IMG/VR virus record: IMGVR_UViG_3300028840_002073
Span: 2,783-66,782 of that record
From: a virus
Length of the DNA stretch: 64,000 bases
Strand: one strand, 5' to 3'
Every line of letters starts with the position of its first letter. The stretch's first letter is position 1. Made by a program: the position numbers and the translations under genes. The notes under the pieces are model-generated. The model was given only the letters and a program-made list of their open reading frames with translations, had not been told where the DNA came from and did not search any database. Of the stretch, positions 42,165-63,802 are shown one piece after another.

Positions 42165-42167
42165 GGC

Positions 42168-42425: not shown

Positions 42426-42745
42426 GTGGCCTTCTTCTTCAGCTTCTTGGTCCACTCCTTGCCCCGGGCCACGAGCCTCTTGGACTCCAGCATCGGGTCG
42501 TCCGGGTGGATCTGGCGGTGACCGCGTCCGGCCTTCTTGACCGCTTCGAGGCAGTCGTAGTGGTCACGCTCATGGGTGTGGTGATCGAGAGGTTCGCCAT
42601 CTACGAATGCCGTCACATGGCCGGTGCGGTGGTCCTGGTGGAGGCCGATCTTCATGCCGCCGAAGGACAGCCGCATGGCGATCTTCTCCACCATGTCGTA
42701 GCTGACCCTCCGGCGGGGGATGAAGGGCAACCCGCTGTCGCGCAT
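42422..42745 (-). CDS. Hypothetical protein (107 aa)
   Basis: AAGGAGG RBS. Confidence 0.65.
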   Translation of the reverse strand: MRDSGLPFIPRRRVSYDMVEKIAMRLSFGGMKIGLHQDHRTGHVTAFVDGEPLDHHTHERDHYDCLEAVKKAGRGHRQIHPDDPMLESKRLVARGKEWTKKLKKKAT

Positions 42746-42755
42746 TCGCTCCTCC

Positions 42756-45197: not shown

Positions 45198-45212
45198 TGC
45201 TCTCTCCCTCTC

Positions 45213-47324: not shown

Positions 47325-48697
47325 CAGGCCGTTCTCCTCACGTAGGCCAGGATGGTCATGTGCGTCGGGCTTCCCGTCGCCGTCTGCACCATGGCTTCCA
47401 TGATGTCGCCGGCCGAGTAGCTGGCGTTCTGGATCGTGCCGCCGTCGTAGAGCGTGTCCACCGCGGCCAGGGACAGGTCGCTGGACAGGTGGTTCGAGGT
47501 GAAGTTCTTTCTCATGTTGACCGTCGCCCCGGTCCCGTCACGGCGCAGGGCCTTGACGTTGATGACCTCGCAGGCCCAGGGGGCCACGAAACAGATGGCC
47601 TGGTCGGGGCTGCTGATCCCGGCCGCGTTCTTCACCGTCGAGCCCGCGGGGAGGATGAGGTTCGTCCCTCCCGGGACCCCGATCTGCGGGAGCCACAGCT
47701 CCCGGCCGTCCCCGCCCGCGTAGAGGATCTCGTGCTCCCCGTCCGACAGGGCCCGCTGGTGCCAGTGCAGCGCGTCGACCTGGCCGTCGAGCTCGTCCGT
47801 CTCGGCCCCGTACTCGTGGGCGCCGACCATGAAGCTGTCCGTCCCGGTGTAGGGAGTCTCGCTGGCGCAGGACGTCGAGTAGGTGGTGCCGTCGTTCACC
47901 CGGATGTTGATGGTGCTCGCGGCGTGGTCGTACCAGAACCGGACGAAGTACCAAGTTCCCGTGGCAGGAGTGACGTCCTCATCCTCGACGGTGTAGGTCG
48001 TCGGCGTGGTCGATCCGAGGGTGGCGACGAAGGCGCCGGCGGTGGAGTCGTAGTAGAGCCCGTACTCCAGATTGGAGGCCGAGTCCTTGGCGACGATCCA
48101 TTGGTCGGCGGCGATGGAGTCGAGCTTGACCCAGAGCGCCACCGAGTAGTCGAACTCACCCTGCTGGAGGGCCGTGCCGTCCGCGACGTAGAGGTTCTCG
48201 CTCCCGGTGAAGTCGGCGGCGTCCCCGATCTTCCCGGTGGCGCTGGCGGTGGCGCCGTTCTCCGTGAGGATGTGCTCACCCATCGACGGGTAGCGGTCGC
48301 CACTCGCCTCCTCGAAGCGCCAGGCGGCGACCAGATCCTCGTAGAGATCGAAGTAGGGATGGACGTGGGTCGCGCGCGCGAGCTCCAGGCTGGCGCCCTC
48401 GTCGGCCTCGTACCCCAGCTCCACGGGGATCCCGGTCGAGATTGGGTGGAAGTGGGTGCCCGGCGACCACCCATCGGTGGGCTCTCCCACCGCGGCCTCC
48501 AGGCCGGCTTGGATCGTCGTCGGCAGGCCCTCGTAGCCCCCGGCTGGCAGGCCGGCGTCGTCGGAGTTCTGGAGGTAGCGCAGGAAGCGGTTGAGCTCCC
48601 CGAAGACCGCGTTCAGGGACTTCTCGAGTTTCTTGTCCTCGCACCTGATCCGGTCGACCAGGTAGGGGGCGTGAATCGAGTGTCGCCGGAAGGGCAT
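47324..48697 (-). CDS. LamG-domain virion protein (no signal peptide)
   Basis: LVAAW.FEE.SG.R, GK.G.A.DF, DGQVD......RALS..E...LY.GG.G. Confidence 0.7.
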   Translation of the reverse strand: MPFRRHSIHAPYLVDRIRCEDKKLEKSLNAVFGELNRFLRYLQNSDDAGLPAGGYEGLPTTIQAGLEAAVGEPTDGWSPGTHFHPISTGIPVELGYEADEGASLELARATHVHPYFDLYEDLVAAWRFEEASGDRYPSMGEHILTENGATASATGKIGDAADFTGSENLYVADGTALQQGEFDYSVALWVKLDSIAADQWIVAKDSASNLEYGLYYDSTAGAFVATLGSTTPTTYTVEDEDVTPATGTWYFVRFWYDHAASTINIRVNDGTTYSTSCASETPYTGTDSFMVGAHEYGAETDELDGQVDALHWHQRALSDGEHEILYAGGDGRELWLPQIGVPGGTNLILPAGSTVKNAAGISSPDQAICFVAPWACEVINVKALRRDGTGATVNMRKNFTSNHLSSDLSLAAVDTLYDGGTIQNASYSAGDIMEAMVQTATGSPTHMTILAYVRRTA

Positions 48698-51600
48698 CAG
48701 CGCCTCTTGAGCTCGTATTCCCCCGTAGCGATCCGGGCCATGATACTACGGTGGATCTCCCGCCTCGCCGCGTCGTGCGCGAAGCGGTAGATGCGCTTCA
48801 GGAACTCCGTCTTGGCGTAGATGTCCATGCCGTCCCAGTCGGAGTTGGAGGTGAGGTTCCGGGCGAAGGCAGAGGCCCTGGCCGCGTAGGCCGCGTAGAG
48901 CTCGCGCTCCCTCTGATTCAGGGCGATCTTCCGACCCATGGCCCCGGGGATGGACATGAAGCGGGGCGGGGCGTTCGGGGTGTAGCCCGTCTCGAGGAAC
49001 AGCCGCTCCAGGTTGCGCTCCGGGCCCGCCTCCGGGGAGTACCGGAACGGCGAGGCGAAGCGGCTGAACGGGTCCTCGCCGCGCTGGATCGGCTCGCCCG
49101 TCCCGGTCAGCTTCGGCGGGAGGTTCTGGGAGAACCAGGGCACCCGGGCGATGAGCGTCGAGGAGATGTCGTCAGTCTGCCGGATCGTCGGGTCGATGGA
49201 TCGGGCCGCGGAGGCCAGGAGGTTCGGGATCATGGCCCCGACCATCCGCTTGAAGAACCGGGCCCCGTACCGGTCCGGGTCGCCCACCGCTTCGGCCGCG
49301 CTGACCATGCCCTCCAGGTAGGTCTTCCCGGTGATGTTGTTCATGACCGAGTAGTGGAGCTTGTCCCAGATGTCCCCGGCGATCCTCTCGTCGGTGGCCT
49401 CGGCCAGGTCGGCGGCGAAACCGAGGCTCGTGGCGATGGGCTCGATGCGGGCCATGGACACCCAGGTGTTCCCGATCTTGATGGCGTAGGGCTGCTTGCC
49501 GGTGGCGAGCCAGTTCCGGCGCTCGTCCCACTCGGCGGGCCCGCCCCCGGTGATGAGCCCGTCCTTCGCCATCATGTAGACGCCCGCGCTGATGAACGAC
49601 CCGAGGATCCCCTGGGCCAGGCGGTCGGAGGCCTCGCCGCCCTTCAGCTTCCCGCTCCGGATGTTCTGGACCGTCCGGGCTAGGCCGACCGGTGTGCGCC
49701 GCACAGCCTGTATCAAGATGCGTTCGGGGGTCCGAATGAAGGGCACCACGAAGGTCAGCCAGGGATACTTCCCGCGGAGGAGCTGGATGTACTTCGAGAA
49801 CAGGGTCGTCTCGTCGCGGAAGGTCGAGACGTCGGCGGCGTGCTCCATCTCCTTCTTGATCTTCCCGAGCTCCTTGTTCCGCAGGAGGAACGACACGTCC
49901 TCCTTCGACACCTCGCGTGGGTCGATCTGGCGCCGCGCCTCGATCTCGAGGTACTTGTCGAGGCTCTGGTTGATCTCCTTCATTCGGTTGAGGAGCTGCT
50001 CCCGGGTCCAGCCCTGCCCCCGGCTCTCCAGGGCGGCCTTGCGGAAGACCTGGGCCGACCGCTCAGCCGAGGCCGCGGCGTACTTCGCGCCGACGTCGAG
50101 GGCCTCCATGATCCGGCCCGGGGTCCGGACGAGCTTCCCGAAGCGCCCGGGGATGGCGGGGGGCCGGTACTCGCCCTTCACGCCGAAGCCGATGTCCTCT
50201 CTGACGAGGGCGGTCTTGGCGAGCTTGAACGCTGAGACGAGGCCGAACCGGTACTTCCCCAGGGCCCTGGCCGCCTCCATCATCTCGCCGGGCACGCGCT
50301 CCTGGGGCCGGGCCTCTCCGGTGAGGAACCGCTCGATGGCCTGGCGCACCCCGCGTTGCTCGAGGGCGGACGCGATCCCGCGCTCCGGCGTCCGGAGGAG
50401 GGCCTCGTGGACGAGGTTGCCGGTGATGTTCGCGCCCTGCGTGGCGGGCCCGGACAGGATGGAGTTGATCCAGTACTCGAGGAACTGGTCGAGGCGGGTC
50501 GGCTTGTGGATCTGGCGGTAGATTTGGTTCACCGCCGCCATGTCCTGCTTGTGGATCGCCGCGGCGAGTTCGTCGATGAGCTGATCGCCGGGCTTCCGGC
50601 CCCGCATCATCCGCTGGAGAAACCGCTCCTCCGGCGTCAGGGACTCGATCCACATTCGGTGTGCGGCCAGGGCCCGGCCTGCCTCGGAGCCGGCGGCCAC
50701 GGTGGCGTACTGGATGCCGATGGCCTTCTGCAGGGCGGCGTGCATCTCCCGCTCCAGCTCCAGGGCCGTCTGCTGGCGGGCCGCCTTCTCCTGTGGGGTC
50801 TGGGCCTCGGCCACGGCGGTCTTGGCGTCGCGGTAGGCCTGCTGCTTGTTGATGAAGTCGATCCCGGCTTCCTGCCGCAGGATGCGCCCGGCGATGATCT
50901 CGTAGTCGGTGAGTGCCCCCTTCTCCTTCAGGGCCTTGACGAACTCGCGCTCAGTCCACCCGAGCTCGAGGGCCATCTCCTTGGCTTCCCTCCAGGACCG
51001 GTAGGAGCGGGCCTCGCCGAACTTCGACTCCAGGGCGTGGGCGCTCTGAGTGATGAAGTCGCGGATGCCCCGCTCGTTGGAGATCCGGGTGATGTTGGTC
51101 GAGAGTCCGATCCGCTCGCCCTTCCAGTTGAACTCGGGCGGCTTCCCGGTGCCGGGGTCCGGGACCATCATGGACTCCAGCCACTTCAGCATCGCCCGGA
51201 GGTCCTTCTTCGAGGGCTCCGGGATGGGCCGGATCGGGCCTCGTGGGCGTCCATCCGGGGTCCGAACGCCGGTCACGTCGGTGGGCTTCCCGCGCTTGAT
51301 CGTCTCTCGGTACTGCGGTCGGGCGATGCTCTGGAGGTACTCCCAGACCCGCTGCAGGAGGGTTCGGTCCTTCACGTCGCCCATGCTGATGAGCCACCTC
51401 GAGAACGACCGGATGCCCCTGGCGAAGCTGTCGGCGCCCAGGACCACAGCGTCCCAGAACCAGCGGGGGTCGAAGCCCATGGCGGCCTCGCCCCACCGGG
51501 CCCTCATGCGCGCCCGCGCGTAGGCCACCCGCCGGTTCCACCACCTGGTCCCCGGCCCCTCCCGGTCCGGCCAGTTGAACGGTCCGGGCGGCTCGTCCCC

Positions 51601-54600
51601 GTCGTCGCCGCCGCCGCCGGCCGGTGGAACCCCGCGGCCCCTGCGCCGGTAGGGTTGGCGCTCCTCGGCAACGAATATCTCTGGCCTGACGCTGCGCTGC
51701 TCCAGCCGGGGGAGGGCCTGCCAGAATGGGATGCCCTGGCCCATCGCCCCGACTCTGGTCCGCAGAGTCTCAGCGGCTACTGGATCGGTGGAGACGACCC
51801 CGTCGAGAGCGTAGCCGTCCTTGATGAGGTCGGACGCGGTCCGGAGGACGCTGAGATTCCCGGGGTCGATGATGAGCACGGCGTTGTCTGCCCCGATGGC
51901 CCGGCCCTGGTTGATGATCCAGCGCCGCATTCGGTGGCTCTCGTTGAAGAAGTCCACCGGGACAGAGGCGATCTGACGGATGCGGTACTCGACGTCGAGG
52001 AACATGATGAGCGGTTGGTCTGCGGCCTGTGTCTCGGCAGCTCTCAGAGCGAGAGCCTCTGGTACAGCTTCCTGGAGGGCTTCCGTATGGGCCAGCTTCC
52101 GCTTGTAGATGTTGGCGCGGTCCTTGACCATGAACGGGTCGGGGAGTCGTCGGATCGACGGGGCGTACTTGATCCACTCGTGCGCCCTGGCCTTGAGCCG
52201 CTGTGGGTTCGTGAGCTCCATGGACAAGCTCATCGCCTGCTCGTCCGTGATGTCTCCCTCGACGTAGGCGTGGCGCAGGCCCATGAACTGCGCGAGGGAG
52301 CGCCAATTCGCCTTGAAGTCGCCCTTGTGCGGGTCCATCACGGTGAACGTTCCGTGGTCGACGACGACCTGGCCGAGGAACCGATCCCCGAACAGATGCA
52401 GCAGGACGCCCGTGATGTTGATGTCTGAGACGGAGGCCACCGGGTTGCCGGAGGGATGGTTGTGGAAGGCGTAGAACCCTTCGGCGCCGACCGCGTCGAG
52501 CTTCTCGCCGAGCCGCTGCTTCCAGTCGGTCCAGTCATCGGGTCGCGGCGTCGCCGGCGCTGCGGCCGGCAGCCGGATCGTCTCGGCCCAGCTCTCCAGG
52601 ATCTCGCCGTCCTTGACCGGGAAGATGTAGGACGTCTCGAAAGCCGGGTTGCGGAGGAGCTGGCCCAACAGCCCGAGGTCTTCGATGGAGTTGACCTTCA
52701 TGCCGTCGAGGTCGAACTGGCCTTCCTTGAAGAAGGCCTCCCGGATCGAAGCTCCGAGATGCTTCGGCGTATCGGAGGCCCCGAGGTCCTCGAGCGCAAT
52801 CCCGGTCCCGATCCGGTAGGGCCTGAGCTGTCCAGGAGGTCCTACGACTCGCTCGACCCAGTCGAGTCCGATTTCGGCGAGGTCTTCCGGGTCGTGGGAC
52901 TCGTCTCTGTCTCCGAGGAAGTCGAGGGCGATCTGGACCGGATCTCTGCCGCTTTCCGCAAGAGCTGACAGAGCATCATCGACCCGTCCTCCCGGTCCCG
53001 CAACGTCCCCGAAGTAGGACCGGAAACGTCGAATCGCGGTCGCATGTCTCTGGAGGACTGTGTCATAGGTCATCACCTCCTCGGGTGGGATGCTGTCTCC
53101 CCTGATCTGCTGGGCGGCCCACACGGCCGAGGCCACCTCGTCGCCGGTCCAGCCGAGTTCATCGGCGGCCTGGCGCAGGAGGTCCTGAATGAACTTCACC
53201 TGACTCCCGTTCGGGGAGTTGCCCTTCTGGAGATTCTCTCTCCCGAGGACGAACCGGGCGATGTGGCGGTCCACGGCGATGGCGTCGAAGCCCAGCTCCG
53301 CGCGGGTGTAGGGGCGGATCTTCTGGCCTCGGACCCCGTTGGAGCTCCGCAGTCGCTCCAGGTTGCGGCGGACCGCCGGCAGGTAGCCCTTGAAGGGCTC
53401 CCCGAGCCGCATCTGCTGGTAGGCCTTCACGGCGAGGGCCACGTTGGCCCGCACGTCCGCGGCCTGGGAGGTGATCCCGAGGATGGCCCGGAACAGCATC
53501 GCGTCGTTGCCGAACAGGCTGGCGAGGGTCTTGTCGTGCCGGACGTGGAAGTCGCGCCAGTCCTTGAACTCGTCCAGCGTGGCGAACAGCTCGTCCATGC
53601 CGATGGCGGCGTCGGTGCCGTACTTCCGGCGCGGGGCCTCGACGCCGAAGAAGGACGGGCGCTCGCCCACGGCCCAGGAGAACAGCCCTCGGAACGCCGC
53701 GGTGTTCCCGGCCGCGGGGCGGAAGGGGTGGAACTTCCCGTAGATCGTGTCGGTCGACGTCTTGATCTGGAAGCTGTTGCGTGGATCGCCCACCGGCGCG
53801 GTGAAGACGGCTCCGAGCTTCTTCAGCTTGTTGTAGATGAACCGGTTTTGCTTGATCGAGACGAGAGGCTTGGTCTGCCGGCGGCCCTTGTACTTGTTGG
53901 CCCCGCTGGCGAGCTGGTTCATCTCGAACAGCACGTCGTCCATCTCCGCGGGCTCGGCCACGATCTTCGGGTCTGGCTTCTCCCGCTTCGGGAGCTCCTC
54001 GCCCGGTCCCGCGTAGGAGACGTAGCCGGCGGGACCGATGTCGCCCTCGGGTGGGATGAGTCGCCCGGTGAACGGCTCGCCGTCGCTCGTCTCAATCGTG
54101 AAGTCGCCGTACTTCCCGAGGGTGTCGTGGCGGTCGTCGAAGATCGCGCCGAGGGCCTGGAGGCGTCGCCTGATGAAGCGGAACTGCTTGAGCGAGACGA
54201 CGTCCTGGCCGCGGTTGCGGATGAGCGTCTCGAGGTGGCTTCGCGCGATGTGCTGGAGCGGAGACTGCTTCTTCCGGTCGGCGCCGGGGTCGGGCTGACC
54301 GGGGTCCCCGAACTCGCTCATCTCGCCGGGGTCCAGGAGCCCGACGTTGCCCGACACCTGGGCGCCGAGCATCTTCATCTTCGTCCCGATGATGGACTTG
54401 TTCCAGTCGTCTACCGCCTGGTCGGAGAACAGGTAGATCACCCGCCCCTGCGACTTCGTGGTGACGCGGTGGATCCGTCCGACCATCTGGACGTTGTTGA
54501 TCGAGTCGAAGGGGGCGGTAATGACGATCATCGTCCGGGGCCGGCTTCCGGTCCGGTCGTCCAGGTTGATCCCGGTCCCGCCTGCCTCCGGCGTGGCGAT

Positions 54601-57600
54601 CATCACGTTGACCTGGCCGCTCTGGAAGCGGTCCATCTCCTCGGCCGCGCCCTTCTCGGCCGCGCCGTGGACCTCGGCATAGGGGATGTTCTGGTCCTGG
54701 AGCCAGCTTCTCAGGAGCTTCAGCGTGCCCTCGGAGGAGGCGATCACCTCCTTCTCGATGCCCAGCTCCTCACCGTTCAGGTCGCGGATCTTCGTCTTCA
54801 CCGCGGCCTCTGAGAAGTTGACCCGGGCGGCGAAGACGACGACGGACCGCCCGGCGGCGAGCTCGCTCTGGATGAGCTCCTGGGCGGCAGGCAGCTTGTC
54901 GGGCTCCTGCTGCCGGCGCTGGTGCTGGAGCATGACCGCGCGGTTGGGCCACTTGGCCTCCGCGATCCGGTCCAGCATCTCCTTCGTCTCCTCTCCGAGC
55001 GGGACGTCCCGGAACTGGATGTCCATGCCCGTCATGTCGATCTCGCGCCGGATGATGTTGCCCTTGCGCGTGACCCGCTCGAACAGCTCCTCCATGAGCC
55101 GGTAGGTCTTCTTCTTCGAAGCCCCGTGGGAGTAGACCGTCTTCGTCACGTCCTTCCACTCGCCGGTCTTCGGATCCTTCAGACGGAACTTCTGCTTCAC
55201 CGCGGTCATGCCCAGGTCCTTCATGAATTGGTCCTGGGGCTTGCCCTCACGGATCCCGATGCGATCGAGGTAGAGGAGGTGAATCGGCTTGTCGCCCGGG
55301 GTCGCGGTGGCGAACAGCACGGCGGCGGCCTTGGCCGCATGGTTGATCCCGGCCTGGCCGGTCTGGGAGGCGAAGGCGCTCTTGAACTTGTGGGCCTCGT
55401 CGGAGATGAGGATGGTGTTCTCGTCCACCGGCTGGTGGGCGACCTTGTAGTACGTGGAGATGTGGATGACGCCCGGGTCGAGTTCACCCGCCGGCTTCCC
55501 GCGCGAGCTCGAGGGCAGGAACTTCAGGCTCACGCCCATCTGGGCCCCGTCGTCCACGTAGGAGCCGGAGATCGTCCAGGCCCCCTGCCGCTTCTTCGCC
55601 TTCAGGACCTCGGCCGGGGCCAGGATGAGGACCTTCTTCCCCTGCCGGGCGTAGCGGGCCGCGACGGCGAGCACCTGGCGTGTCTTCCCGACACCGGTCC
55701 CGTCCGCCATGAGGAAGCCCTCGCCCTTGTCCATGGCGGCCAGGGCCTTGGCGACCCCGACGTGCTGCGCTGAGTTGAGGTGGGGCTTGAGATCCGCCGG
55801 GATCAGGTCGAAGTCGGGGGCGATTGCGTCGGTGGCTTCCGGTCGGATGGTGAGGATGTCGTAGATCCCCGCCCGCGGCGCCGCTCCAGGAGCCTGTTGT
55901 ACTTCTGGAGGACGCTCCACTCCTCCAAGTCCCCGTCCCCGTCGATCAACGCCTGGAGGACCTCCGGGGGCAGGTTGTCGATCTGCTTCTCGTCCAACCC
56001 CTGCTCGAGGAGCTGGCTGAGGCTCAGGGCGACCCCGTCCGGGGCCTCCGGCGGCTGCCGGTCCACGTCTCGGAGAGTAACTGGGGGTCGCCGGCCTGTC
56101 AACGGGTTTCGCGGGCCGCTCGAACAGGTCGAGCTGCTTCTTCGTCGGGCGGACGGGCCGCGGGCCATACCGGCCCCCGAGCGGGCGCGGGGCCTCGGCC
56201 AGGCCGCCGAACAGGTCCATCTGGCCGGGTTCCTTCGGCTTCTCCTCGCCCTTCTCGGCCCGGTCCCGCTTCTGCTGCTCCTCCTTGGAGAACATCGACC
56301 CGGGGAGGTTGCCCTCCGTGATGATCGGCGTCTCCATGGTGGCTTCGGTGTAGCCCGGGATGAGCTCCTGGCCCGACTTGTCCCGCACCCGCCCGTAGGG
56401 CTGCTTCTTGGCCTCGACCAGGCCGTGGAGCCCCAGCTCGTCCACCTCGACGCGGATGGCGTCGGGCCAGTTCTCGCGGGCCCGGTAGAGGGCATGGCCC
56501 GGGTTGAGGCCCTTCACGGCGTCGTGGTGGACGCTGCCGTCTTCCCAGGTGACCTTCACGGGGACGGCCCAGGCGTACCGCTGCTCTCCGTAGGGCTTCG
56601 CCGGGGTGCTCTCGACGGGCCCCTCCCCGGGCGCGGCCCCTCCCTCGGGCACGTCGAAGGGAACGTCGTCGGCCTCGCCGCCCTCAGCGTTCACGGCGTC
56701 GCGGAAGGCGTGGACGATGCGGACGTACTCCTGCCCCTTGCCCCGCCGGATGGCGTCGATGACCTCCTGGGTGGTGAACGATTCCTGTGTCCCCGGCTTC
56801 TTCAGGCCCCACATGAAGGTCTTGAGGAGGTGGGTTTCGGTGCCGTCTGCGAACTGGCCCTCGTTGTCGCCGGCCAGCGCGGGGCGCCCCGCCGGCTCCG
56901 GCGTCTCCTGGAGATCCTCCTCGAGCGCCAGGCCGATGGACTCCAGAGCGGCGAGGGCGTCGGGGTCGTCGAAGTAGTCCGGCTTCATGTCGGCCAGGGC
57001 TTCCTCGATGGCCCGTCCCTCGGCCAGCTTCCGGGTCCGGAAGTCCAGGATCTTCTTGAACTGCGGGTGCCCCGGCCCCGACTGCAGGGCCATCTTGATC
57101 GTCTTCTCGCCCATGCCGGGGATGTCGGCGAAGTGGAACTTCCAGCGGATCTTGACCTTCTTCGCCCGGTCCCACGCCTTCGTCACCACGTTGTAGGCGA
57201 GCACGTCCTCCAGCTCGCCGCGCTCAGCCATGCCGGCGAACTTCTCGGCGTCCCGCTCGATCTCGCCCAGGACCACGTCCTCAGGGACCGTGATTTCTGT
57301 GCGGTTCTGCTCGACTGCCGCTTCGAGCTCTGCCGGGTCGATGTCCAGGTGATCCACCGCGGAGTCGATCGTGCGCTGGGTGATCGGCAGGAACTTCCCG
57401 TCAGCCTTCACCCGGCTCTTGGGGACGACGACCCTCTCCTTGGCGATGCGCTTGATGAGCCGGATGATCTTCTCCCGCGCTCCGGCATTGGGCAGCACCA
57501 TGCCCAGGTAGTTCTCGAACCCGCCGGAGATCCCCTCCAGCTCCAGCTTCTTCTCCTCGTACTCGCGCTTGGCCTTCCGGCCCTTCTGCGTCTTCAGGTC

Positions 57601-60600
57601 CTCCCGGCGGCGCCGGACCTCGGCGGTCAGGCGGATGAGCTCGCGGGCCTTGTCCCCGGTCTGCATTCGCCGGACGTCCTCGACGTGCTTGCCGATGAGG
57701 GCGTAGAGTTGGTCCTCGAGCGTCTTCGGCTTCGGCTCCTTCTTCGGCTTCGGCTTCTTCTTGCGCGGGGGCTTCTTCTTCCCCGTCTCCTCGCGCGCCT
57801 TCTCCCGCTCGATGGCTTCCTTCACCCGCTCCTGGACGACAGCCTCGTCCACCGCGGGCGGGTTGGAGACGATCTCGGAGACGATCTCGGCTGGGACGAA
57901 GGCCTGTGCGTACCCCTCGCCGTCTGCCGTCAGGGTGCGCTCGACCGCCTTGGCGGCGACCGCGTCCTGGATCGCGTCGTACTGGAAGTCCTTTCGGAAC
58001 CACTCCGGGTCCGTCTCGTAGCCCATCATGCGGCCGTAGCGGCTGAAGCGTTCGAAACCGCCGAGCTGCTGGAGGATCTCGTAGAGGGCTTCGGTGTCTT
58101 CGATGAGCCCTTCTGCTTCCGCCTGGGCGTGGATCCTGGCCCAGCCGAGCTCCAGCTCGCGGTGCTTCATCCGTTCGACGTCGACGCCCAGGTCCTCGAA
58201 GGCGTCCTCTGCCCTGAAGAAGACCGCGGGATCCGTTGTCCACTGGCCGTCCACGACGTGGGCGTCTCGCTGGCGAGAGAGCTCATCCCAGGCCGCCACG
58301 ATGCTGTCAGGAACGCTGGTGGCGTAGGCGTGGTGGCGCTTCGTGTTGCCGTTCCGCTCCATCTCGAGGGCCAGCTCCCCGACCTCCGGGTTGTTGGTGA
58401 TGATGGCGTAGAAGCGGACGTTGTGGTCCAGCTCTGCCCTGATGGCGTCGAGGTAGGCAGTCTCGTCGGGGTAGTTGGCTTCGGCTGCCCGCAGGATCTT
58501 GAGGTACTTCCTGACGGGATCGTAGCCGTTCATCGGCTTGTAGGTGTTCTGCTTGTACAGCTCCGTGTCGCCGCCCTGCTGCTCGATGTAGGCGTCGCGG
58601 TCCTTGGGGTTGACCTTCTTGACCTTGGTTCCACGGGGAACGTTGATCGCTGGCGGGGCAACCTGTGGCGGCGGTGGCGGCTCCGGTTCCTCCTCGTACT
58701 CCTCCTCGGGTTCCGCCTCCTCGGGCGGCTTCTCGGCGAACCGCTCCAGGTGCCACTGGGCCTCGTCCGCCGGCATCTCGACGATGAGCTGCTCCTCGGC
58801 CCACGCCATGAGCTTCTCCGGCGTGTCCTGGCCCTGGTTGATTCCGGCCTCGACCAGGGCGACGTACTCGAGGCGCTGGACCGGGTCCATCTTCTGCAGG
58901 GACTCGGGCAGTCCGCGGACGCCCGGCTGTTCGAGCGGCGGGGCGCCGCCCTCCAGAGTCCCCGGCGGGGCGCCGAGCGCACCCTCCTGGGCGTCCACCC
59001 GGGCGACCCCGGGGGTCATCATGGAGCGGACGAGGTTCGCGTCGGCGGTGACCGGGATGGTCCGGTTCGGGTCCATCGGCCCCGCGTCCCGCACCGCGTC
59101 GACCAGCTCCTCCAGCCGGGCCCCGGGCCCGACGCCGAGGAAGTGGATCTGCGGCGGGAGTGTGCCGGCCTCCTTGGCCTGGCGGACGAACTCGCCGACC
59201 TCCTCGGGAGTGACGGCGGCGGCGTTGCCGGGGATCCCCACCGTGAAGTCCTGGGTCCCAGCGTGCTGGGCGACCGCCTGCCACATCTCGAACAGCGACA
59301 GGTCGCCCTTCTGGAGCGGGAAGATCGGGTTGACGTGGGCCTGGCCGAGGAACCGCTGGACCTCGGGCGCGAAGGCCGCCAGGGCCTCCAGGGTCGCGGC
59401 CTGGTCGCCCACCACGTCAGGCATCACGAGGTTGAACGTTCCCCAGGTGCGTTCCTCGGGGTCCGCGAGCGTGGCGGTGCGGTCCAGGAGCTCGTCGTAC
59501 TTCTGGAGGATCTTCCCGAAGTCCAGGGGCTCGACCTCGACGCCCTCGGGGGCCCGCAGGCCCTTCTTGAACAGCGAGTAGGCCCCGGAGTCCACGAAGA
59601 CGTTGGCCCCCATCCGGCCCACCGCGGCGGCGATCTCGTCCACGCCGCGCTTCGAGAGCTCGCCCACGTCCACGCCGAACGGCCGCTCCATCTGCGCCGC
59701 CGCGGCGATGTCCCGGGGCCGGCTCTGTCCGGAGACGAAGAACAGGTCCGCGGCCTCGGCCCCCTCGATCCGCTCCCCGGACACGAACTCGGCCCGGTCC
59801 TCGGGGCTCATCTGGGGGTCCAGCTCGCCCTTCCGGATCGGGGTCCGCTTCCCGGTTGTCTCGATCTCAGACAGGAGGGGGAAGACCTCCAGCCAGGACG
59901 GGTGGATCTCGGCGCCAAGCTGCTTCGCGGAACGGAGCGACTTCAGGATGTGAGAGGAGCCAGGTCGGCCCGCTGCGTAGGCCTCGAGAGCCAGTTGAAA
60001 CGAGTCCTCATCCCGTAGGGTGACGGGATCGGTCGCCACAACGCGGCCTTCCTCGGGGGACAGGGTCACCTTCCGCTCCTCGCGGCGATTCCGCTGGAGC
60101 GTGGTCTTGGCCCCCTTCAGGATCTCCTTGGCCTTGGCCTTCGTGGGCGCGCTGAGGGGGGGCATGGCCTCGCGCCCCTCGCGGTCGTAGAACCGGACGA
60201 CCCAGCCTTCGCCGCCGGGGCCCCGGCCGATGTCGCCGCGCACCGCCGGCCCGGCCTCCTCCATGTCGGGGGCGCCAGGTGTGGGCGGGACCCGGGGCCC
60301 AGCCGGTGGAGCCTCCCCCGGGGGAAGCTGGGGGGCTGTCGGCGGGACCCCGGGTCGTTCTGTCGGCGGGGCTGGACGGGCGGGCGGCGCCTTCCCGGGC
60401 GCGGGGGCCGGCACAGCGGCTCCCTCGACCACGGGGGGCACCTCGGTCGGTGGCGGGCTCGGCGGCGGCTTCGGAGCGGGGCCCTCGACCGGCTCGGGGA
60501 GGACTCCCTCTGCCGGCGGGGCCGGGGGCCCGTGGAGGCGCCCGGGCTGTCGGAGCTGCGCGTCGATGCTGTCGATGACCAGCTCGACCCTCGTCCGCTG

Positions 60601-62355
60601 GGTCGGATCGGTGATGGCTTGGACTTCCTGCGTGAGGCGGCCCCGGAGGTTCACGAGCTCCGCGTCGCTCGCGGCCTGGCCGATGGGGTCGTCGGCGCCG
60701 GGCGGCTCCACCCGGCCCTTGTTGACTTCCCTCTGGGCCTCGGCCAGGGCCTCTCGCATCTTCGTGAGCGACGTGATCTCCGCGGGGTCCTTGGCCCCGG
60801 CGATCTCGCCGTCCAGGCGCCGGAGGATCTCGGCGACCGCGTCCTGGGCCGTCTCGCCCACCGCGCCCTGCTTCGGCTGCTGCGGCCGCCCGATGCGGTC
60901 CACCAGCTCGAGGAGGTTCCGCTCGGCCGAGGCGGCATCCCCGAGGTCTATCATCCGCTCGCTCGGGGGCTGGCCGGGCGGGGTCGGTTCCTTGACCCGC
61001 ACGCGCAGGGGCGGGTCCGCGCCGGGCTCCCACCCCCCGCGGTACTCGCGCAGAGTCGCGGCGTCGGCCTCGGCCAGGGCCCGCGCTCGGTCCGAGAGCT
61101 TGCTCAGGTCCAGGTTCTCGAGTTCCGCCAGCGGATCCCGGATCGCTCCGGAGCGGCGCATATTCTGGAGCCCGAGGAGGAGGTCGTCGGCTTGGTTGTT
61201 GAGATCCATCCGGGCGGCTTCCGCCTCGGGGGTGCCGGACCGCCCGAGTTCCTCGACGCGGAACCGGATGCGCCGGAGCTGCTCCAGGGCCTCGAGCTCC
61301 GACATGGCCCTCGCCGCCGGGGGCTCGTAGGCCAGCTTCGGCTTGCGGAACGGGGCGACCGGGCTCGGCGTTGGCGGGGCCTCTGGAGGCGCTCCCGGGC
61401 GGGGCTCGAACGGCAGCGTCCCGGGCGGGGCGCCCTCGGGCGGGGGCGGACCCTCCGGGGGCGGGCCTTCCGGTGGCGTCTCTGGGGGCTCCTCGGGGAG
61501 GTCCTTCTTCGGCTCCTGGCCCCGCATCTGGTCGCGCAGCTTCCGGAGCTCGGCGGTCGTCAGGCCGCGGGTCGTCTCGGGGGGCACTCCCAGGCCGTCC
61601 AGCTCCCGGACGATCCGGCCCCGGCTCCGGATGGCCAGGCCGCGCTCGGCCAGGGGGGCGAACACCAGGCCCGCCTCGACGGCCGACTCCGCGGCCGCCT
61701 GCGAGACGGCGGGACTCCAGCCCTCCTCGCGGTACGTCTGGTAGGCGTGGTCGGCAGAGTCGTAGGCCCCCTTCAGCATCATGGCCCCGAACCCGACGTT
61801 GGCGACCTTCCCGACGACGGGGAAGACCTGCGAGGCCCCGTGGGTCGCGGCGATCAGGGCGAGGTTCGTGGGGTCTGAGGCGATGTCCACCGTCTTGCCG
61901 ACGACGCCCCGCGCCGCGGCCTTGGCGTGCTGCATGGCCGGCGCGTCGGTGGCCTCGACCCGGCCGACGTAGGTGTCCTGGGCCAGCTCCGGCGTGGAGA
62001 CGGGCGGCGGCACCGAGGGGTCCTCGGGGACACCCGGAATCGGTGCAATCTTCCGCATCCAGGACTGCGGGCTCCGGTGCATCCAGTTGGCGGCCTTCTG
62101 GCCGACCGGGCCCCCGACTGCCAGGGCGACCGGGAGGTCACGGATGTTGGTCGAGATGTTCTGCTGGAGGGCGCCGAGGCCGGCGAGGATCCGCTCCATG
62201 CGGCCCTGCTCGTCCTCCTCCTGGGGGGCGCCGGGTCGGGGCGCGACGTGCTTGGAGACAACGGGCCGTTCCAGCCCCTCGTACTGCTTCCGGAGCTTGG
62301 CCAGGTGGCGCTGTAGACGCGGCGAGTAGGTGGGTGGCCTGAAGTTGGTCCCCAT
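48697..62355 (-). CDS. Giant polyvalent (DarB-like, probably ejected) protein, 4552 aa
   Basis: TGT-like domain (about 59030-59750), strawberry-notch SF2 helicase (about 54350-55800), HhH-glycosylase-like domain (about 53080-53570), JAB/RadC domain (about 52330-52700), helical C-terminal virion domain. Confidence 0.85.
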   Translation of the reverse strand: MGTNFRPPTYSPRLQRHLAKLRKQYEGLERPVVSKHVAPRPGAPQEEDEQGRMERILAGLGALQQNISTNIRDLPVALAVGGPVGQKAANWMHRSPQSWMRKIAPIPGVPEDPSVPPPVSTPELAQDTYVGRVEATDAPAMQHAKAAARGVVGKTVDIASDPTNLALIAATHGASQVFPVVGKVANVGFGAMMLKGAYDSADHAYQTYREEGWSPAVSQAAAESAVEAGLVFAPLAERGLAIRSRGRIVRELDGLGVPPETTRGLTTAELRKLRDQMRGQEPKKDLPEEPPETPPEGPPPEGPPPPEGAPPGTLPFEPRPGAPPEAPPTPSPVAPFRKPKLAYEPPAARAMSELEALEQLRRIRFRVEELGRSGTPEAEAARMDLNNQADDLLLGLQNMRRSGAIRDPLAELENLDLSKLSDRARALAEADAATLREYRGGWEPGADPPLRVRVKEPTPPGQPPSERMIDLGDAASAERNLLELVDRIGRPQQPKQGAVGETAQDAVAEILRRLDGEIAGAKDPAEITSLTKMREALAEAQREVNKGRVEPPGADDPIGQAASDAELVNLRGRLTQEVQAITDPTQRTRVELVIDSIDAQLRQPGRLHGPPAPPAEGVLPEPVEGPAPKPPPSPPPTEVPPVVEGAAVPAPAPGKAPPARPAPPTERPGVPPTAPQLPPGEAPPAGPRVPPTPGAPDMEEAGPAVRGDIGRGPGGEGWVVRFYDREGREAMPPLSAPTKAKAKEILKGAKTTLQRNRREERKVTLSPEEGRVVATDPVTLRDEDSFQLALEAYAAGRPGSSHILKSLRSAKQLGAEIHPSWLEVFPLLSEIETTGKRTPIRKGELDPQMSPEDRAEFVSGERIEGAEAADLFFVSGQSRPRDIAAAAQMERPFGVDVGELSKRGVDEIAAAVGRMGANVFVDSGAYSLFKKGLRAPEGVEVEPLDFGKILQKYDELLDRTATLADPEERTWGTFNLVMPDVVGDQAATLEALAAFAPEVQRFLGQAHVNPIFPLQKGDLSLFEMWQAVAQHAGTQDFTVGIPGNAAAVTPEEVGEFVRQAKEAGTLPPQIHFLGVGPGARLEELVDAVRDAGPMDPNRTIPVTADANLVRSMMTPGVARVDAQEGALGAPPGTLEGGAPPLEQPGVRGLPESLQKMDPVQRLEYVALVEAGINQGQDTPEKLMAWAEEQLIVEMPADEAQWHLERFAEKPPEEAEPEEEYEEEPEPPPPPQVAPPAINVPRGTKVKKVNPKDRDAYIEQQGGDTELYKQNTYKPMNGYDPVRKYLKILRAAEANYPDETAYLDAIRAELDHNVRFYAIITNNPEVGELALEMERNGNTKRHHAYATSVPDSIVAAWDELSRQRDAHVVDGQWTTDPAVFFRAEDAFEDLGVDVERMKHRELELGWARIHAQAEAEGLIEDTEALYEILQQLGGFERFSRYGRMMGYETDPEWFRKDFQYDAIQDAVAAKAVERTLTADGEGYAQAFVPAEIVSEIVSNPPAVDEAVVQERVKEAIEREKAREETGKKKPPRKKKPKPKKEPKPKTLEDQLYALIGKHVEDVRRMQTGDKARELIRLTAEVRRRREDLKTQKGRKAKREYEEKKLELEGISGGFENYLGMVLPNAGAREKIIRLIKRIAKERVVVPKSRVKADGKFLPITQRTIDSAVDHLDIDPAELEAAVEQNRTEITVPEDVVLGEIERDAEKFAGMAERGELEDVLAYNVVTKAWDRAKKVKIRWKFHFADIPGMGEKTIKMALQSGPGHPQFKKILDFRTRKLAEGRAIEEALADMKPDYFDDPDALAALESIGLALEEDLQETPEPAGRPALAGDNEGQFADGTETHLLKTFMWGLKKPGTQESFTTQEVIDAIRRGKGQEYVRIVHAFRDAVNAEGGEADDVPFDVPEGGAAPGEGPVESTPAKPYGEQRYAWAVPVKVTWEDGSVHHDAVKGLNPGHALYRARENWPDAIRVEVDELGLHGLVEAKKQPYGRVRDKSGQELIPGYTEATMETPIITEGNLPGSMFSKEEQQKRDRAEKGEEKPKEPGQMDLFGGLAEAPRPLGGRYGPRPVRPTKKQLDLFERPAKPVDRPATPSYSPRRGPAAAGGPGRGRPEPQPAPRAGVGREADRQPAPGGPPGVDRRGRGLGGVERPPEVQQAPGAAPRAGIYDILTIRPEATDAIAPDFDLIPADLKPHLNSAQHVGVAKALAAMDKGEGFLMADGTGVGKTRQVLAVAARYARQGKKVLILAPAEVLKAKKRQGAWTISGSYVDDGAQMGVSLKFLPSSSRGKPAGELDPGVIHISTYYKVAHQPVDENTILISDEAHKFKSAFASQTGQAGINHAAKAAAVLFATATPGDKPIHLLYLDRIGIREGKPQDQFMKDLGMTAVKQKFRLKDPKTGEWKDVTKTVYSHGASKKKTYRLMEELFERVTRKGNIIRREIDMTGMDIQFRDVPLGEETKEMLDRIAEAKWPNRAVMLQHQRRQQEPDKLPAAQELIQSELAAGRSVVVFAARVNFSEAAVKTKIRDLNGEELGIEKEVIASSEGTLKLLRSWLQDQNIPYAEVHGAAEKGAAEEMDRFQSGQVNVMIATPEAGGTGINLDDRTGSRPRTMIVITAPFDSINNVQMVGRIHRVTTKSQGRVIYLFSDQAVDDWNKSIIGTKMKMLGAQVSGNVGLLDPGEMSEFGDPGQPDPGADRKKQSPLQHIARSHLETLIRNRGQDVVSLKQFRFIRRRLQALGAIFDDRHDTLGKYGDFTIETSDGEPFTGRLIPPEGDIGPAGYVSYAGPGEELPKREKPDPKIVAEPAEMDDVLFEMNQLASGANKYKGRRQTKPLVSIKQNRFIYNKLKKLGAVFTAPVGDPRNSFQIKTSTDTIYGKFHPFRPAAGNTAAFRGLFSWAVGERPSFFGVEAPRRKYGTDAAIGMDELFATLDEFKDWRDFHVRHDKTLASLFGNDAMLFRAILGITSQAADVRANVALAVKAYQQMRLGEPFKGYLPAVRRNLERLRSSNGVRGQKIRPYTRAELGFDAIAVDRHIARFVLGRENLQKGNSPNGSQVKFIQDLLRQAADELGWTGDEVASAVWAAQQIRGDSIPPEEVMTYDTVLQRHATAIRRFRSYFGDVAGPGGRVDDALSALAESGRDPVQIALDFLGDRDESHDPEDLAEIGLDWVERVVGPPGQLRPYRIGTGIALEDLGASDTPKHLGASIREAFFKEGQFDLDGMKVNSIEDLGLLGQLLRNPAFETSYIFPVKDGEILESWAETIRLPAAAPATPRPDDWTDWKQRLGEKLDAVGAEGFYAFHNHPSGNPVASVSDINITGVLLHLFGDRFLGQVVVDHGTFTVMDPHKGDFKANWRSLAQFMGLRHAYVEGDITDEQAMSLSMELTNPQRLKARAHEWIKYAPSIRRLPDPFMVKDRANIYKRKLAHTEALQEAVPEALALRAAETQAADQPLIMFLDVEYRIRQIASVPVDFFNESHRMRRWIINQGRAIGADNAVLIIDPGNLSVLRTASDLIKDGYALDGVVSTDPVAAETLRTRVGAMGQGIPFWQALPRLEQRSVRPEIFVAEERQPYRRRGRGVPPAGGGGDDGDEPPGPFNWPDREGPGTRWWNRRVAYARARMRARWGEAAMGFDPRWFWDAVVLGADSFARGIRSFSRWLISMGDVKDRTLLQRVWEYLQSIARPQYRETIKRGKPTDVTGVRTPDGRPRGPIRPIPEPSKKDLRAMLKWLESMMVPDPGTGKPPEFNWKGERIGLSTNITRISNERGIRDFITQSAHALESKFGEARSYRSWREAKEMALELGWTEREFVKALKEKGALTDYEIIAGRILRQEAGIDFINKQQAYRDAKTAVAEAQTPQEKAARQQTALELEREMHAALQKAIGIQYATVAAGSEAGRALAAHRMWIESLTPEERFLQRMMRGRKPGDQLIDELAAAIHKQDMAAVNQIYRQIHKPTRLDQFLEYWINSILSGPATQGANITGNLVHEALLRTPERGIASALEQRGVRQAIERFLTGEARPQERVPGEMMEAARALGKYRFGLVSAFKLAKTALVREDIGFGVKGEYRPPAIPGRFGKLVRTPGRIMEALDVGAKYAAASAERSAQVFRKAALESRGQGWTREQLLNRMKEINQSLDKYLEIEARRQIDPREVSKEDVSFLLRNKELGKIKKEMEHAADVSTFRDETTLFSKYIQLLRGKYPWLTFVVPFIRTPERILIQAVRRTPVGLARTVQNIRSGKLKGGEASDRLAQGILGSFISAGVYMMAKDGLITGGGPAEWDERRNWLATGKQPYAIKIGNTWVSMARIEPIATSLGFAADLAEATDERIAGDIWDKLHYSVMNNITGKTYLEGMVSAAEAVGDPDRYGARFFKRMVGAMIPNLLASAARSIDPTIRQTDDISSTLIARVPWFSQNLPPKLTGTGEPIQRGEDPFSRFASPFRYSPEAGPERNLERLFLETGYTPNAPPRFMSIPGAMGRKIALNQRERELYAAYAARASAFARNLTSNSDWDGMDIYAKTEFLKRIYRFAHDAARREIHRSIMARIATGEYELKRR
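55803..56066 (-). CDS. Overprinted 87-aa gene nested in the giant ORF (different frame)
   Basis: GTG 7 nt after a consensus promoter; nested frame has GC3-rich codons and a helical protein-like sequence while the host frame is R/G/P-rich. Confidence 0.6.
   Translation of the reverse strand: MDRQPPEAPDGVALSLSQLLEQGLDEKQIDNLPPEVLQALIDGDGDLEEWSVLQKYNRLLERRRGRGSTTSSPSDRKPPTQSPPTST
56074..56102 (-). promoter_or_regulatory. Intragenic sigma70 promoter
   Basis: TTGACA (56102-56097)-17 nt-TACTCT (56079-56074). Confidence 0.7.
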
Positions 62356-62363
62356 GTCTCCTC

Positions 62364-62393
62364 TTTACACGCTCGCGTTGAGCGTGTTAGTGT
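62364..62393 (+). promoter_or_regulatory. Promoter with palindromic operator in the spacer
   Basis: TTTACA-18 nt-TAGTGT with TG extension; ACACGCTC-N5-GAGCGTGT at 62367-62387. Confidence 0.55.
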
Positions 62394-62416
62394 CCTCCTT
62401 GCGGGAGAAAAGCACG

Positions 62417-62803
62417 ATGTCTGAGTACCAAATCGACCCTTGGCACCCGACGAGCCCGCTGGTTCCTGGGGGGTGGGCTGAAAGCCATGCAGACGCGAAT
62501 TCCACGTCCAGTCTCAGCCTGACCCAGGACTTTCGGTTTGAGGTTCCGGCGCCCCCGGTGCCTCCAAGTCCCCGGGGGGATGTCCAACCCATCGTTCAGG
62601 GAATCCAGGCCCACTACGCCAGCCTGCCGTCCCTCGTCGTCGCGTCGTCCCCACCCTCTCATGGCGTCCAGGAGGACGGGCTGAGCGAGGTGGGCCTGCT
62701 GCTGCTCATCTCGGTCGCCGTCGCTGGCTTGCTCGTGGGGGTCATGGGGGCGGGGCTCCTACTTCTCCTGCGGCGTCGACGGCGCGAGCATCCCCGCCGC
62801 TAG
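62417..62803 (+). CDS. Counter-oriented membrane protein with C-terminal TM and poly-Arg (moron-like)
   Basis: GGGAG RBS, own promoter, LLLLISVAVAGLLVGVMGAGLLLLL-RRRRR. Confidence 0.5.
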   Translation: MSEYQIDPWHPTSPLVPGGWAESHADANSTSSLSLTQDFRFEVPAPPVPPSPRGDVQPIVQGIQAHYASLPSLVVASSPPSHGVQEDGLSEVGLLLLISVAVAGLLVGVMGAGLLLLLRRRRREHPRR

Positions 62804-63802
62804 CATCGAGAGCGGATCCGCCTTCGGGTCGCGGAGCTGGTGGCCCATGATGATGTTCGCGTAGTCCCGGCGCTCCCGCTCGAGGCGCTCCATGTACTGC
62901 GTCTTCTCCGGGCCGTCCGGCATCTCGGCCATGGCCTGGTTCATCTGCTCCGTGACCTTCGCGTAGGCCTGCAGCGCGGCTTGGACCCGGGCCCCCTGCG
63001 ACTCCTGCTCGATGATCTCGCCCCCGTACCGCCCCTCGGCCTCGATGCGGGCCTCCTCCATGGGGTCGATCTCGGCTTCGGCGACGGCCCGCTTCGCCTG
63101 GGCCTCGGTCATCTCCTGCTCGATGTCCTGGGCCCTGGCCCCGCGCTCCCACCGCTGGCGGTCCGAGACGTCGCGGGCATCCATCGAGAGCTCACCCGCG
63201 GCGTAGAGCTGGTTGAGGGCCGCGCTCGGGGCCCAGCCGGGCGAGCGGTCCGCCGGCAGACCGGACGGGGGCCCGGCCGATGGCTCCGCACCGGGCGGGG
63301 TGTAGATGGTGGCCTCCGGCCCCGCCGCCACGCCACCCTGGGGCATCTCCTCGGGGTCCCGCATGGGGACCGGCGGCTTCCCGCCCAGCGGGTCCGTGAT
63401 GTCGATGGGGGCGTTGGTCGCCACGATGCGCCCGTCCGGCATCTTGATCGCCCGGTGTCGCCCGCCGCCCTCGTTCTCGCCCTTCCCGAACTTCGGGAGC
63501 GGGGCGTCGGGGGAGCCCGCGTCCTGCTTCTGGGAGGCTCCCTGGCCCCGCGGGTCCACCTCGGCCCGGTCGGCCTCGATCTCCTCCTGGGCCTTCGCCT
63601 GGGGAGGGGGCGGCGCCGGGGTCGCCCCGGCCAGGCCGAGAGTCGCATCGCGGGAGGGGAGTTGCGGCACGCCTCCGGGTCCGGGTGCCGATCCGGCCAC
63701 GCCCAAGGCTCGCTGGAAGCGAGGATGCCGCCAGATGCCTCGCAGCACTCCACCGACCGCCCTGGGGACGGCTCCTGGGTCTGGTCTGAGGACGTCAGCC
63801 AT
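62759..63802 (-). CDS. Putative internal virion/ejection protein
   Basis: 347 aa Pro/Ala-rich N-half and helical Glu/Gln/Met-rich C-half; upstream of the giant gene. Confidence 0.55.
   Translation of the reverse strand: MADVLRPDPGAVPRAVGGVLRGIWRHPRFQRALGVAGSAPGPGGVPQLPSRDATLGLAGATPAPPPPQAKAQEEIEADRAEVDPRGQGASQKQDAGSPDAPLPKFGKGENEGGGRHRAIKMPDGRIVATNAPIDITDPLGGKPPVPMRDPEEMPQGGVAAGPEATIYTPPGAEPSAGPPSGLPADRSPGWAPSAALNQLYAAGELSMDARDVSDRQRWERGARAQDIEQEMTEAQAKRAVAEAEIDPMEEARIEAEGRYGGEIIEQESQGARVQAALQAYAKVTEQMNQAMAEMPDGPEKTQYMERLERERRDYANIIMGHQLRDPKADPLSMLAAGMLAPSTPQEK

Follow-up and report, generated by a model that had tools for sequence, protein, structure and literature searches.

In phage lambda, the small gene Rz1 lies wholly inside the larger gene Rz, on the same strand, in the +1 frame, and with a start codon of its own. 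Passages of PMC6139136 describe embedded spanin genes as usually missed by gene callers, note that the overlapped part of the larger gene is a flexible linker, and propose that such genes arise when an upstream gene loses its stop codon and reads across the gene downstream. In Bacillus subtilis, the gene for a small protein, comS, lies in a distinct frame inside srfAB, which is very large and multidomain; comS is expressed with srfAB, and according to passages of PMC12915044 the functions of the two can be separated with stop mutations that leave the protein of the host frame unchanged. Here we describe a similar arrangement in a phage: a putative small gene, which we call M, in the +1 frame of a giant open reading frame (ORF). 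M was found in a stretch of 64,000 nucleotides (nt) that was analysed as a whole (hereafter "the window": positions 2,783 to 66,782 of the IMG/VR virus record IMGVR_UViG_3300028840_002073). The window is most of a complete virus record of 66,782 base pairs (bp) with direct terminal repeats.

M shares with Rz1 its complete enclosure, strand, frame offset, and separate start, and the route of origin sketched for embedded spanins in PMC6139136 is the one that we infer for M. In contrast to Rz1, M would encode an acidic, helical protein, and its host gene encodes a virion and helicase protein of 4552 amino acids (aa) instead of a lysis protein. Also unlike Rz/Rz1, the embedded frame alone carries the codon signature in the M locus, and a functional link between the two products is conjectural. 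None of eight members of the M family contains a cysteine, so there is no lipobox of the kind expected in an outer spanin (o-spanin), and M is not a spanin. M is like comS in being a small gene in another frame of a giant multidomain gene (as comS is described in PMC12915044). In contrast, comS is bacterial and ComS has a known regulatory role in competence, while M apparently has its own promoter in this phage. PHROG and profile searches found no homology of M to ComS.

The host gene of M recalls the polyvalent proteins of phages and conjugative elements, as defined by Iyer, Burroughs, Anand, de Souza, and Aravind in 2017 (PMC5512222). The terms frameshift, out-of-frame, and overlapping are absent from the main text of PMC5512222, and "nested" and "embedded" occur there in other senses only, so an embedded gene in a linker would be an addition to the picture of polyvalent proteins given in that text. 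Our literature searches (of main texts) turned up no embedded gene within the gene of a polyvalent or internal virion protein. Embedded genes as a phenomenon are already known; what is new here is where M lies, the reversal of the codon signature, an orphan family that is conserved, and an apparent leaderless internal promoter. Embedded out-of-frame phage genes are rare, mostly chance finds, and nearly always overlooked in annotation, and the linkers of giant polyvalent or internal virion genes are normally written off as low-complexity filler.

A nested frame in the linker of a giant gene

From comparisons of the window with its relatives, we consider it likely that M is a real, conserved, separately initiated gene embedded in the +1 frame of the giant gene's linker. 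M lies wholly inside the giant ORF (48697-62355) on the same (minus) strand, between the last conserved block of the upstream half, with the motif GRYGP, and the G-I-[FY] that begins the helicase half (Table 1). The first-pass annotation of this DNA had reported TTGACA, 17 nt, TACTCT, and then 7 nt to a GTG that opens a frame of 87 codons, all inside the 4552-aa ORF, and re-reading the minus strand gave exactly this layout. It had also placed the nested gene in the linker just before the helicase domain, which agrees with a helicase module at 54346-55782.

The evidence for M begins with the use of the third codon position. The window is 67% G+C, and the giant ORF has G+C fractions of 0.69, 0.46, and 0.91 at codon positions 1, 2, and 3. 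From 56065 to 55930 (in windows of 60 nt), the third-position G+C content (GC3) of the giant frame falls to 0.20-0.45, while that of the nested frame is 1.00. The switch covers about 180 nt, from about 56066 to 55885, and from about 55885 high GC3 is back in the giant frame. Across the whole 13.7 kilobases (kb) of the giant ORF, 90-nt windows with GC3 below 0.5 are confined to 56091-55947. Furthermore, when all long high-GC3 ORFs of the window were scanned, three were flagged, two of them at their 5' ends alone. Because these two are stop-to-stop frames that overlap an upstream gene, the switch at M is the sole internal one in 64 kb. The same is seen with a log-odds score for codon usage, for which the rest of the giant ORF served as the training set: in the M core, the nested frame scores +7 to +15 bits per 60 nt and the giant frame scores -16 to -23 bits.

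This pattern also accounts for how the giant frame can stay open. Its first codon position is the third position of M, which is always G or C, so no stop codon is possible there and the openness is automatic. The giant-frame product across the M core is built solely of G, P, A, R, E, Q, V, D, and L residues. The third position of the giant frame is rich in A and T because it is the second codon position of a nested protein that is rich in Leu, Glu, Asp, Lys, and Gln. Two of the earlier proposals, that codon bias switches to the nested frame and that the giant ORF reads like a stop-free shadow there, are thus strongly borne out.

The linker could instead be an ordinary low-complexity run of Pro, Gly, Ala, and Arg, with a meaningless shadow in the nested frame. 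Other runs rich in P, A, and G do occur in the giant protein and in its relatives, and three of the relatives (P0014, P0015, and P0016) have their longest such run in another part of the protein. A true P/G/A/R linker keeps G or C at its third positions, as does the run at 60384-60366 with a GC3 of 0.67, and not 0.20-0.45 as found across M. An A/T-rich giant third position is instead what the second position of a Leu/Glu/Asp/Lys/Gln-rich protein would give. In addition, the codon-position pattern is present in five lineages and hydrophobic and acidic columns are shared by eight peptides. We therefore give a composition artefact only a slim chance, and continue with M as a gene.

The giant protein itself has a recognizable helicase. 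Pfam finds ResIII, AAA_34, Helicase_C_4, and Helicase_C in residues 2192-2670, which is a superfamily 2 (SF2) helicase of the Strawberry-notch type, and the PHROG matches are to a DNA helicase (residues 2188-2652) and, in the C-terminal region, to an internal virion protein (residues 4145-4448). Most of the protein has no domain match in Pfam or PHROGs. With 4552 aa in a complete virus record, it is a giant multidomain phage protein as expected of polyvalent proteins. As to conflict-related domains, the Strawberry-notch helicase is clear, a JAB match is sub-threshold, and there is the PHROG match to an internal virion protein. The JAB match is RadC-like (residues 3291-3321, window 52386-52478 on the minus strand; E = 0.0034), and its 17.7 bits are under the Pfam cut-off of 22.1. 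PF04002 is present in the precomputed domain lists of several relatives.

The nested frame in related phages

The helicase part of the giant protein was used to scan metagenome and viral contigs, which gave the loci L003-L011. L003, L006, L009, and L011 are near-identical copies and were left out, and we counted four independent lineages besides the window: L004 (50% identical to the window in the helicase part), L005 (41%), L008 (45%), and L010 (38%). Judging by codon-position pattern and log-odds, the coding signature moves to the +1 frame for 130-200 nt at the equivalent place in all four, after the GRYGP block and just before the G-I-[FY]. Their nested frames have GC3 of 0.95-1.00 and A/T-rich second positions. 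Because synonymous sites are saturated at such divergence, the shifted signature should persist only if the nested frame is under selection. One observation that could have spoken against the proposal, stop codons in the nested frame of relatives, was not made: the frame is intact in each of the four.

The nested peptides form a family. We built a HMMER profile from four of them and searched 1.84 billion representative proteins (E ≤ 0.001). Seven of the nine hits are small proteins of 73-120 aa that match from residues 1-7, and three of these seven are the nested ORFs of L004, L005, and L008. The remaining two hits are long and unrelated repeat proteins, VCBS-like and ankyrin-repeat, as labelled from their repeat sequences. 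The family has at least eight diverged members, all unnamed or called "hypothetical protein." Hydrophobic and acidic columns are common to the nested peptides (eight sequences). The family cores have 50-72 residues, a net charge of -2 to -13, a pI of 4.2-5.1, and no cysteine (8 of 8); for the core of M in the window, the net charge is -6 and the pI is 4.4. In the tail of M, 76% of residues are S, T, or P, and the tails of its relatives are rich in S, T, P, and R; the tail arises where the conserved beginning of the helicase half is read out of frame until the first stop codon is reached. Three or four helices are predicted for the family, with an AlphaFold confidence score (pLDDT) of 60 for M of the window, which is poor, and of 75.5 for the L008 peptide. 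The first-pass annotation had called the product acidic and helical; its acidity is clear and its helices are predicted. In sum, the constraint on the embedded frame is visible as a codon signature in five of five lineages, as homologous peptides, and as seven small proteins in the database.

M changes faster than its surroundings. Its identity to the window's peptide is 18% in L004, 21% in L005, and 32% in L008, as compared to 52%, 45%, and 45%, respectively, for the helicase part. Similarly, in a contig of the sequencing runs X1 and X2 that is about 82% identical to the window, M is the segment that fails to align: 237 different letters stand in place of 55816-56061 (246 nt). Since the two lengths differ by 9, a multiple of three, both frames are kept. 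This contig is probably the genome that encodes P0014, a giant protein with 72% identity.

A second variable segment was seen in the upstream half, at about 56370-56589 on the minus strand (giant residues of about 1925-1990). There, 218 nt of the window correspond to 185 other letters in the 82% contig; here, too, the lengths differ by a multiple of three (33 nt). The window (and P0014, by eye) has an insert of about 65 residues at this place, and L004, L005, and L008 are without it.

Another conceivable explanation is that M was once in frame with the giant protein and that two compensating indels, or an assembly error, displaced the frame. There are runs of C and G near both junctions, and any +1 shift in the giant gene would be stop-free and tolerable in a linker. 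In contrast, the offset is identical in all four further lineages at 38-50% identity, and an ancient shift would have moved the signature to the giant frame, where it is not: the signature is still nested. We also found no protein, among the nine hits or the 1.84 billion representatives, in which the peptide of M is part of a larger protein in the same frame. (A word-based search for longer proteins that hold the nested peptide found none either, which is weak evidence, and a search for proteins of nearly the same length as a 463-aa segment returned one helicase fragment and nothing else.) In Logan contigs of the sequencing runs X1 and X2, there were 0 differences and 0 gaps relative to 55300-56700. 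X1 and X2 may be the source data of the record and are apparently one data set, so this agreement excludes an assembler-specific error only. (A third run, X3, covers parts of the stretch, and M is not among them.) No compensating indels, which the first-pass annotation had named as the way in which its reading could fail, were thus found in re-assembled contigs (possibly from the same reads), and no relative has the peptide in frame. A compensated double frameshift or misassembly has hardly any probability left.

In all five lineages, the giant frame runs through M without a stop, including the spacer before M, where stop codons are compositionally possible. The upstream and downstream halves are in one frame in all five, even though their spacers cannot be aligned. 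From the start of M to 150 nt beyond the G-I-F, the giant frames of L005 and L008 contain no ATG, GTG, or TTG, so in those lineages the helicase half cannot start separately. In the window and L004, possible starts of the downstream half either abut a GGAGGA without spacing or lie inside the conserved N-terminus of the helicase. Because of the open frame, the shared frame, and the missing starts, we regard the 4552-aa protein as genuine and its linker as a passenger. At E ≤ 1e-10, 44 such giant proteins were found in the database, and the ten closest (P0013-P0022) are compatible with this arrangement: the G-[IV]-[FY] flank is present in 10 of 10 and GRYGP in 9 of 10, and their linkers have 79-106 aa, of which 9-16% are encoded by codons that start with A or T. 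This fit is unspecific, as there are other P/A/G-rich runs in these proteins.

These observations also bear on the idea that the upstream half, M, and the downstream half are three separate genes, and that the 4552-aa ORF is a by-product of G/C-locked third positions that is not translated through. Composition alone would keep the giant frame stop-free across M; the spacer looks intergenic, with a promoter or a Shine-Dalgarno sequence; and gene callers do call M as a separate protein on short contigs. However, with three genes, the ribosome would have nowhere to terminate after the upstream half, which lacks a stop codon in the spacer in five of five lineages, and in L005 and L008 no canonical start would be available to the downstream half near the point where its conservation begins, while the starts in the window and L004 are poorly placed, as described above. 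Nor would the two halves be expected to share a frame in every lineage despite unalignable spacers. Three separate genes are accordingly improbable, and we favor M as a gene within a giant gene that is translated throughout. Two further ideas were dropped: reinitiation of the helicase half after the stop codon of M, as the downstream starts are not conserved, and a -1 shift that joins M to the helicase half, as there is no shared slippery site.

Start signals of M

The start codon of the nested frame is ATG in L004 and L005 and GTG in L008, L010, and the window, and it is at a homologous position in all five lineages. The GTG of the window aligns with the starts of its relatives, and the peptide begins with M-D-R, as compared to M-D-Y in L008 and P0006. 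In the four relatives, a Shine-Dalgarno sequence lies 5-8 nt before the start: AAGGAG in L004, GGAGG in L005, GGGAGAAG in L008, and GGAGG in L010. The embedded gene therefore has a start of its own with an initiation signal in 4 of 5 lineages, and in the window its GTG lies behind a -10-like hexamer instead.

If M had no start of its own, it might be reached by recoding: ribosomes that shift by +1 at the spacer would read M and stop at 55803, and the product, the upstream half plus M, would be made alongside the full-length protein. The nested frame of the window is open upstream of the GTG for 143 codons, to an ATG at 56495 (230 aa), and giant-frame codons that are very rare in this gene (AGT, TCT, AGA, and CGT) lie at the junction and could stall ribosomes. 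Also, Shine-Dalgarno-like sequences are able to stimulate +1 shifts, as in prfB. Set against this are the start codon at a homologous position in every lineage, the Shine-Dalgarno sequences at the distance used for initiation in four of the five, and the seven small database proteins, all of which match the profile from their first residues. The nearest nested-frame stop upstream of the start is 22 codons away in L004, 9 in L005, and 4 in L008, and the last two distances leave almost no room for a shift site. By eye, no shift motif is shared at the junction of the upstream half and M (four upstream sequences), and at the junction of M and the downstream half, no heptamer or slippery sequence is shared by the four aligned junctions. 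Recoding is very improbable, and the conserved start codons point to separate initiation of M.

In leaderless genes, the promoter ends a few bases before the start codon, as for lambda cI transcribed from PRM and for many actinobacterial genes. GTG is a poor leaderless start in E. coli, but it is used in actinobacteria. The site before M in the window resembles that of a leaderless gene: its -10 hexamer ends 7 nt upstream of the start codon, which is GTG here, and a Shine-Dalgarno sequence is lacking. Sites of the form TTGACA-N16-18-TANNNT occur three times in the 64-kb window, as compared to 0.04 expected, and none of 100 shuffled sequences reached three. If we require a -35 hexamer with at least 5 of 6 matches, a TANNNT, and a start codon 6-8 nt further on, then the window has two sites, versus a mean of 0.1 in 30 simulations. 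These two sites with leaderless geometry are the one at M and one at 16553-16592.

The codons that form the hexamers are unusual for the giant gene. Elsewhere in the gene, GTT is used for 10 of 268 Val, AGG for 26 of 371 Arg, and TCT for 7 of 178 Ser, and among the neighboring codons, AAA is used for 0 of 237 Lys, AGT for 3 of 178 Ser, AGA for 8 of 371 Arg, and CGT for 10 of 371 Arg. Hexamers made of codons that are rare in the giant gene are expected if a promoter constrains the nucleotides. The linker of P0014 keeps V-D, Y-S, and R-G at the spacing that they have in the window, which is compatible with conservation of the hexamers and the start in its genome.

The first-pass annotation had described a consensus promoter. 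The TTGACA upholds this, and the weak -10 hexamer does not. As a conserved feature, the promoter fares worse: the loci of the relatives lack the pattern and have Shine-Dalgarno sequences instead. The core of that annotation, a separately expressed nested gene, appears to be right, as it is supported by the conserved codon switch, the position of the start, and the peptide.

Several points weigh against M as a separately initiated gene. The embedded gene is a prediction from sequence, and every relative is metagenomic. The upstream extension of the nested frame (to 56495) has the codon signature of the giant frame. The GTG of the window has no Shine-Dalgarno sequence, TACTCT matches TATAAT at only 3 of 6 positions, and consequently no promoter is listed in 48000-63000 by a stricter scan. 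In 9 of 11 loci the promoter pattern has no match, and the two matches are the window's own genome and L007 (by pattern match alone). The L004 peptide is just 18% identical to that of the window, and the nested peptide of L010, which is short and rich in P and Q, bears only a loose resemblance to the others. G or C at the third positions makes the nested frame nearly stop-proof, so its openness alone proves little; the case for the nested frame rests on the codon-position pattern and on conservation instead. Finally, we found neither a family nor a fold nor a partner for M, and anything that we say of its function is thus a guess.

The two other promoter-like sites of the window precede genes of their own. 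At 16553-16919 on the plus strand, TTGACA, 18 nt, and TAGATT (site 16553-16582) are followed after 7 nt by the ATG (16590) of a 109-codon ORF, whose product is very basic and has no PHROG match. This ORF lies in a divergent intergenic region, which is adjoined by an ORF on the minus strand (15191-16477) for a protein of 428 aa with a lipoprotein-like N-terminus and a very Cys-rich body. The third site, at 32104-32132 on the minus strand, is followed by a leader with GAGGAGG and by an ATG (32077) that opens the frame of a 327-aa protein, whose PHROG match is to a protease family (E = 1.5e-46). Rfam gave nothing close to any threshold.

Origin and possible roles of M

In the relatives, M would be translated from its own start behind an internal Shine-Dalgarno sequence on the mRNA of the giant gene. 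In this phage, it is more likely that M is expressed from a leaderless transcript that begins at an internal promoter of the sigma-70 type (that is, of the host type). Ribosomes on the giant gene would read the DNA of M one base out of register and produce a disordered linker that is rich in G, P, A, and R. The sequence of this linker would be dictated by M, and the giant protein would use the shadow of M as its linker.

In the most likely origin of this arrangement, the small gene existed first and a long ORF later came to run across it. A nested frame with the ordinary codon signature, within a giant frame that lacks it, fits such read-across better than a gene born inside an old frame. The codon signature here seems to be the reverse of what classical overprinting leaves. 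The first-pass annotation had called M overprinted; given the normal codon signature of the nested frame, the direction was probably the opposite.

As to function, M might bind or chaperone the giant protein with which it is inherited, and this is our leading, tentative guess. It is possible, and we think somewhat less likely, that M acts on a target in the host, for instance as an anti-defence factor; the remaining probability is for some other role. The first-pass annotation had proposed that the protein is probably made early and may inhibit, or be an antidote to, an enzymatic domain of the giant protein, which is conjecture on both counts. Conflict proteins are often fast-evolving. Searches of M against Pfam and PHROGs gave only noise (E ≥ 0.01), and there was no match in PADLOC, in a profile search of PDB sequences, or in a protein atlas. 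A Foldseek search with the model of pLDDT 75 gave no match at E ≤ 0.001 in viral and PDB libraries. Co-folding of the C-terminal part of the upstream half, the N-terminal part of the helicase, and M scored 0.00, and as a single job without controls this carries no weight either way.

We can also imagine a broader scenario, which we regard as unlikely on balance. In high-GC phages, giant polyvalent or virion genes might be built by reading through small live genes, whose stop-proof shadows become disordered linkers. These small genes would still be expressed from internal signals, and each would serve as a dedicated partner of the helicase half: as an inhibitor in the producing cell, as an assembly chaperone, or as an early antidote.

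The M locus suggests that giant phage genes can carry unannotated passenger genes, and under the broader scenario their linkers would hide such genes systematically. In high-GC genomes, a simple and portable sign of an embedded gene is that the G+C pattern over the codon positions flips locally within an open frame. The locus also offers a concrete model for how a long fusion ORF can cross a live gene without meeting a stop, and it adds an unnamed protein family of at least eight diverged members that evolves faster than its flanks. It should be possible to separate the products of M and of the giant gene with mutations that create a stop codon in one frame and leave the protein of the other unchanged.

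Table 1. Features of the M locus, in window coordinates
Feature	Position	Strand	Remarks
Putative embedded gene M	55803..56066	-	GTG start at 56066-56064; 87 codons; stop at 55805-55803
M core, acidic and predicted helical	55885..56066	-	Nested frame alone carries the coding signature
M tail, S/T/P-rich	55803..55868	-	Overlaps the conserved start of the helicase half; giant frame carries the signature
Intergenic-like spacer inside the giant ORF, with promoter-like site	56067..56112	-	GC3 of both frames is intermediate
-35-like hexamer TTGACA	56097..56102	-	Followed by a 17-nt spacer
-10-like hexamer TACTCT (TANNNT)	56074..56079	-	7 nt (56073-56067) before the GTG
Giant ORF, host gene of M	48697..62355	-	4552 aa; from the ORF list
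Helicase module, residues 2192-2670	54346..55782	-	Pfam and PHROGs
GRYGP motif, final conserved block of the upstream half (U), giant frame	56161..56175	-	From alignment; G-R-Y-G-P is invariant among the window, L004, L005, and L008
G-I-Y, first conserved residues of the downstream half (D), giant frame	55861..55869	-	Directly after the M core; G-I-[FY] is common to the window, L004, L005, and L008 (junction alignment); G7 and I8 are invariant in alignment A1

Other searches with this region were mostly negative. Scans of genome contigs from 185,579 prokaryote genomes found no relative, and hence no prophage copy and no clue to the host. A search with the DNA of the region found no match among phage and plasmid records, and no viral contig was matched when the giant-frame segment, the nested peptide, P0008, and P0007 were each used as a single query protein. 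We considered a 31-nt match at about 59480-59510 as a repeat and gave it no weight, as the similarity is only 10 of 25 residues (E = 0.11).

Among the genes that surround the giant ORF, at E ≤ 1e-5, 7 of the 8 large ORFs tested downstream of it (33389-47324, minus strand) have no PHROG match, and neither does the ORF upstream of it (62759-63802). The phage is poorly covered by known families. The ORF at 47324-48697 matches a PHROG of unknown function.

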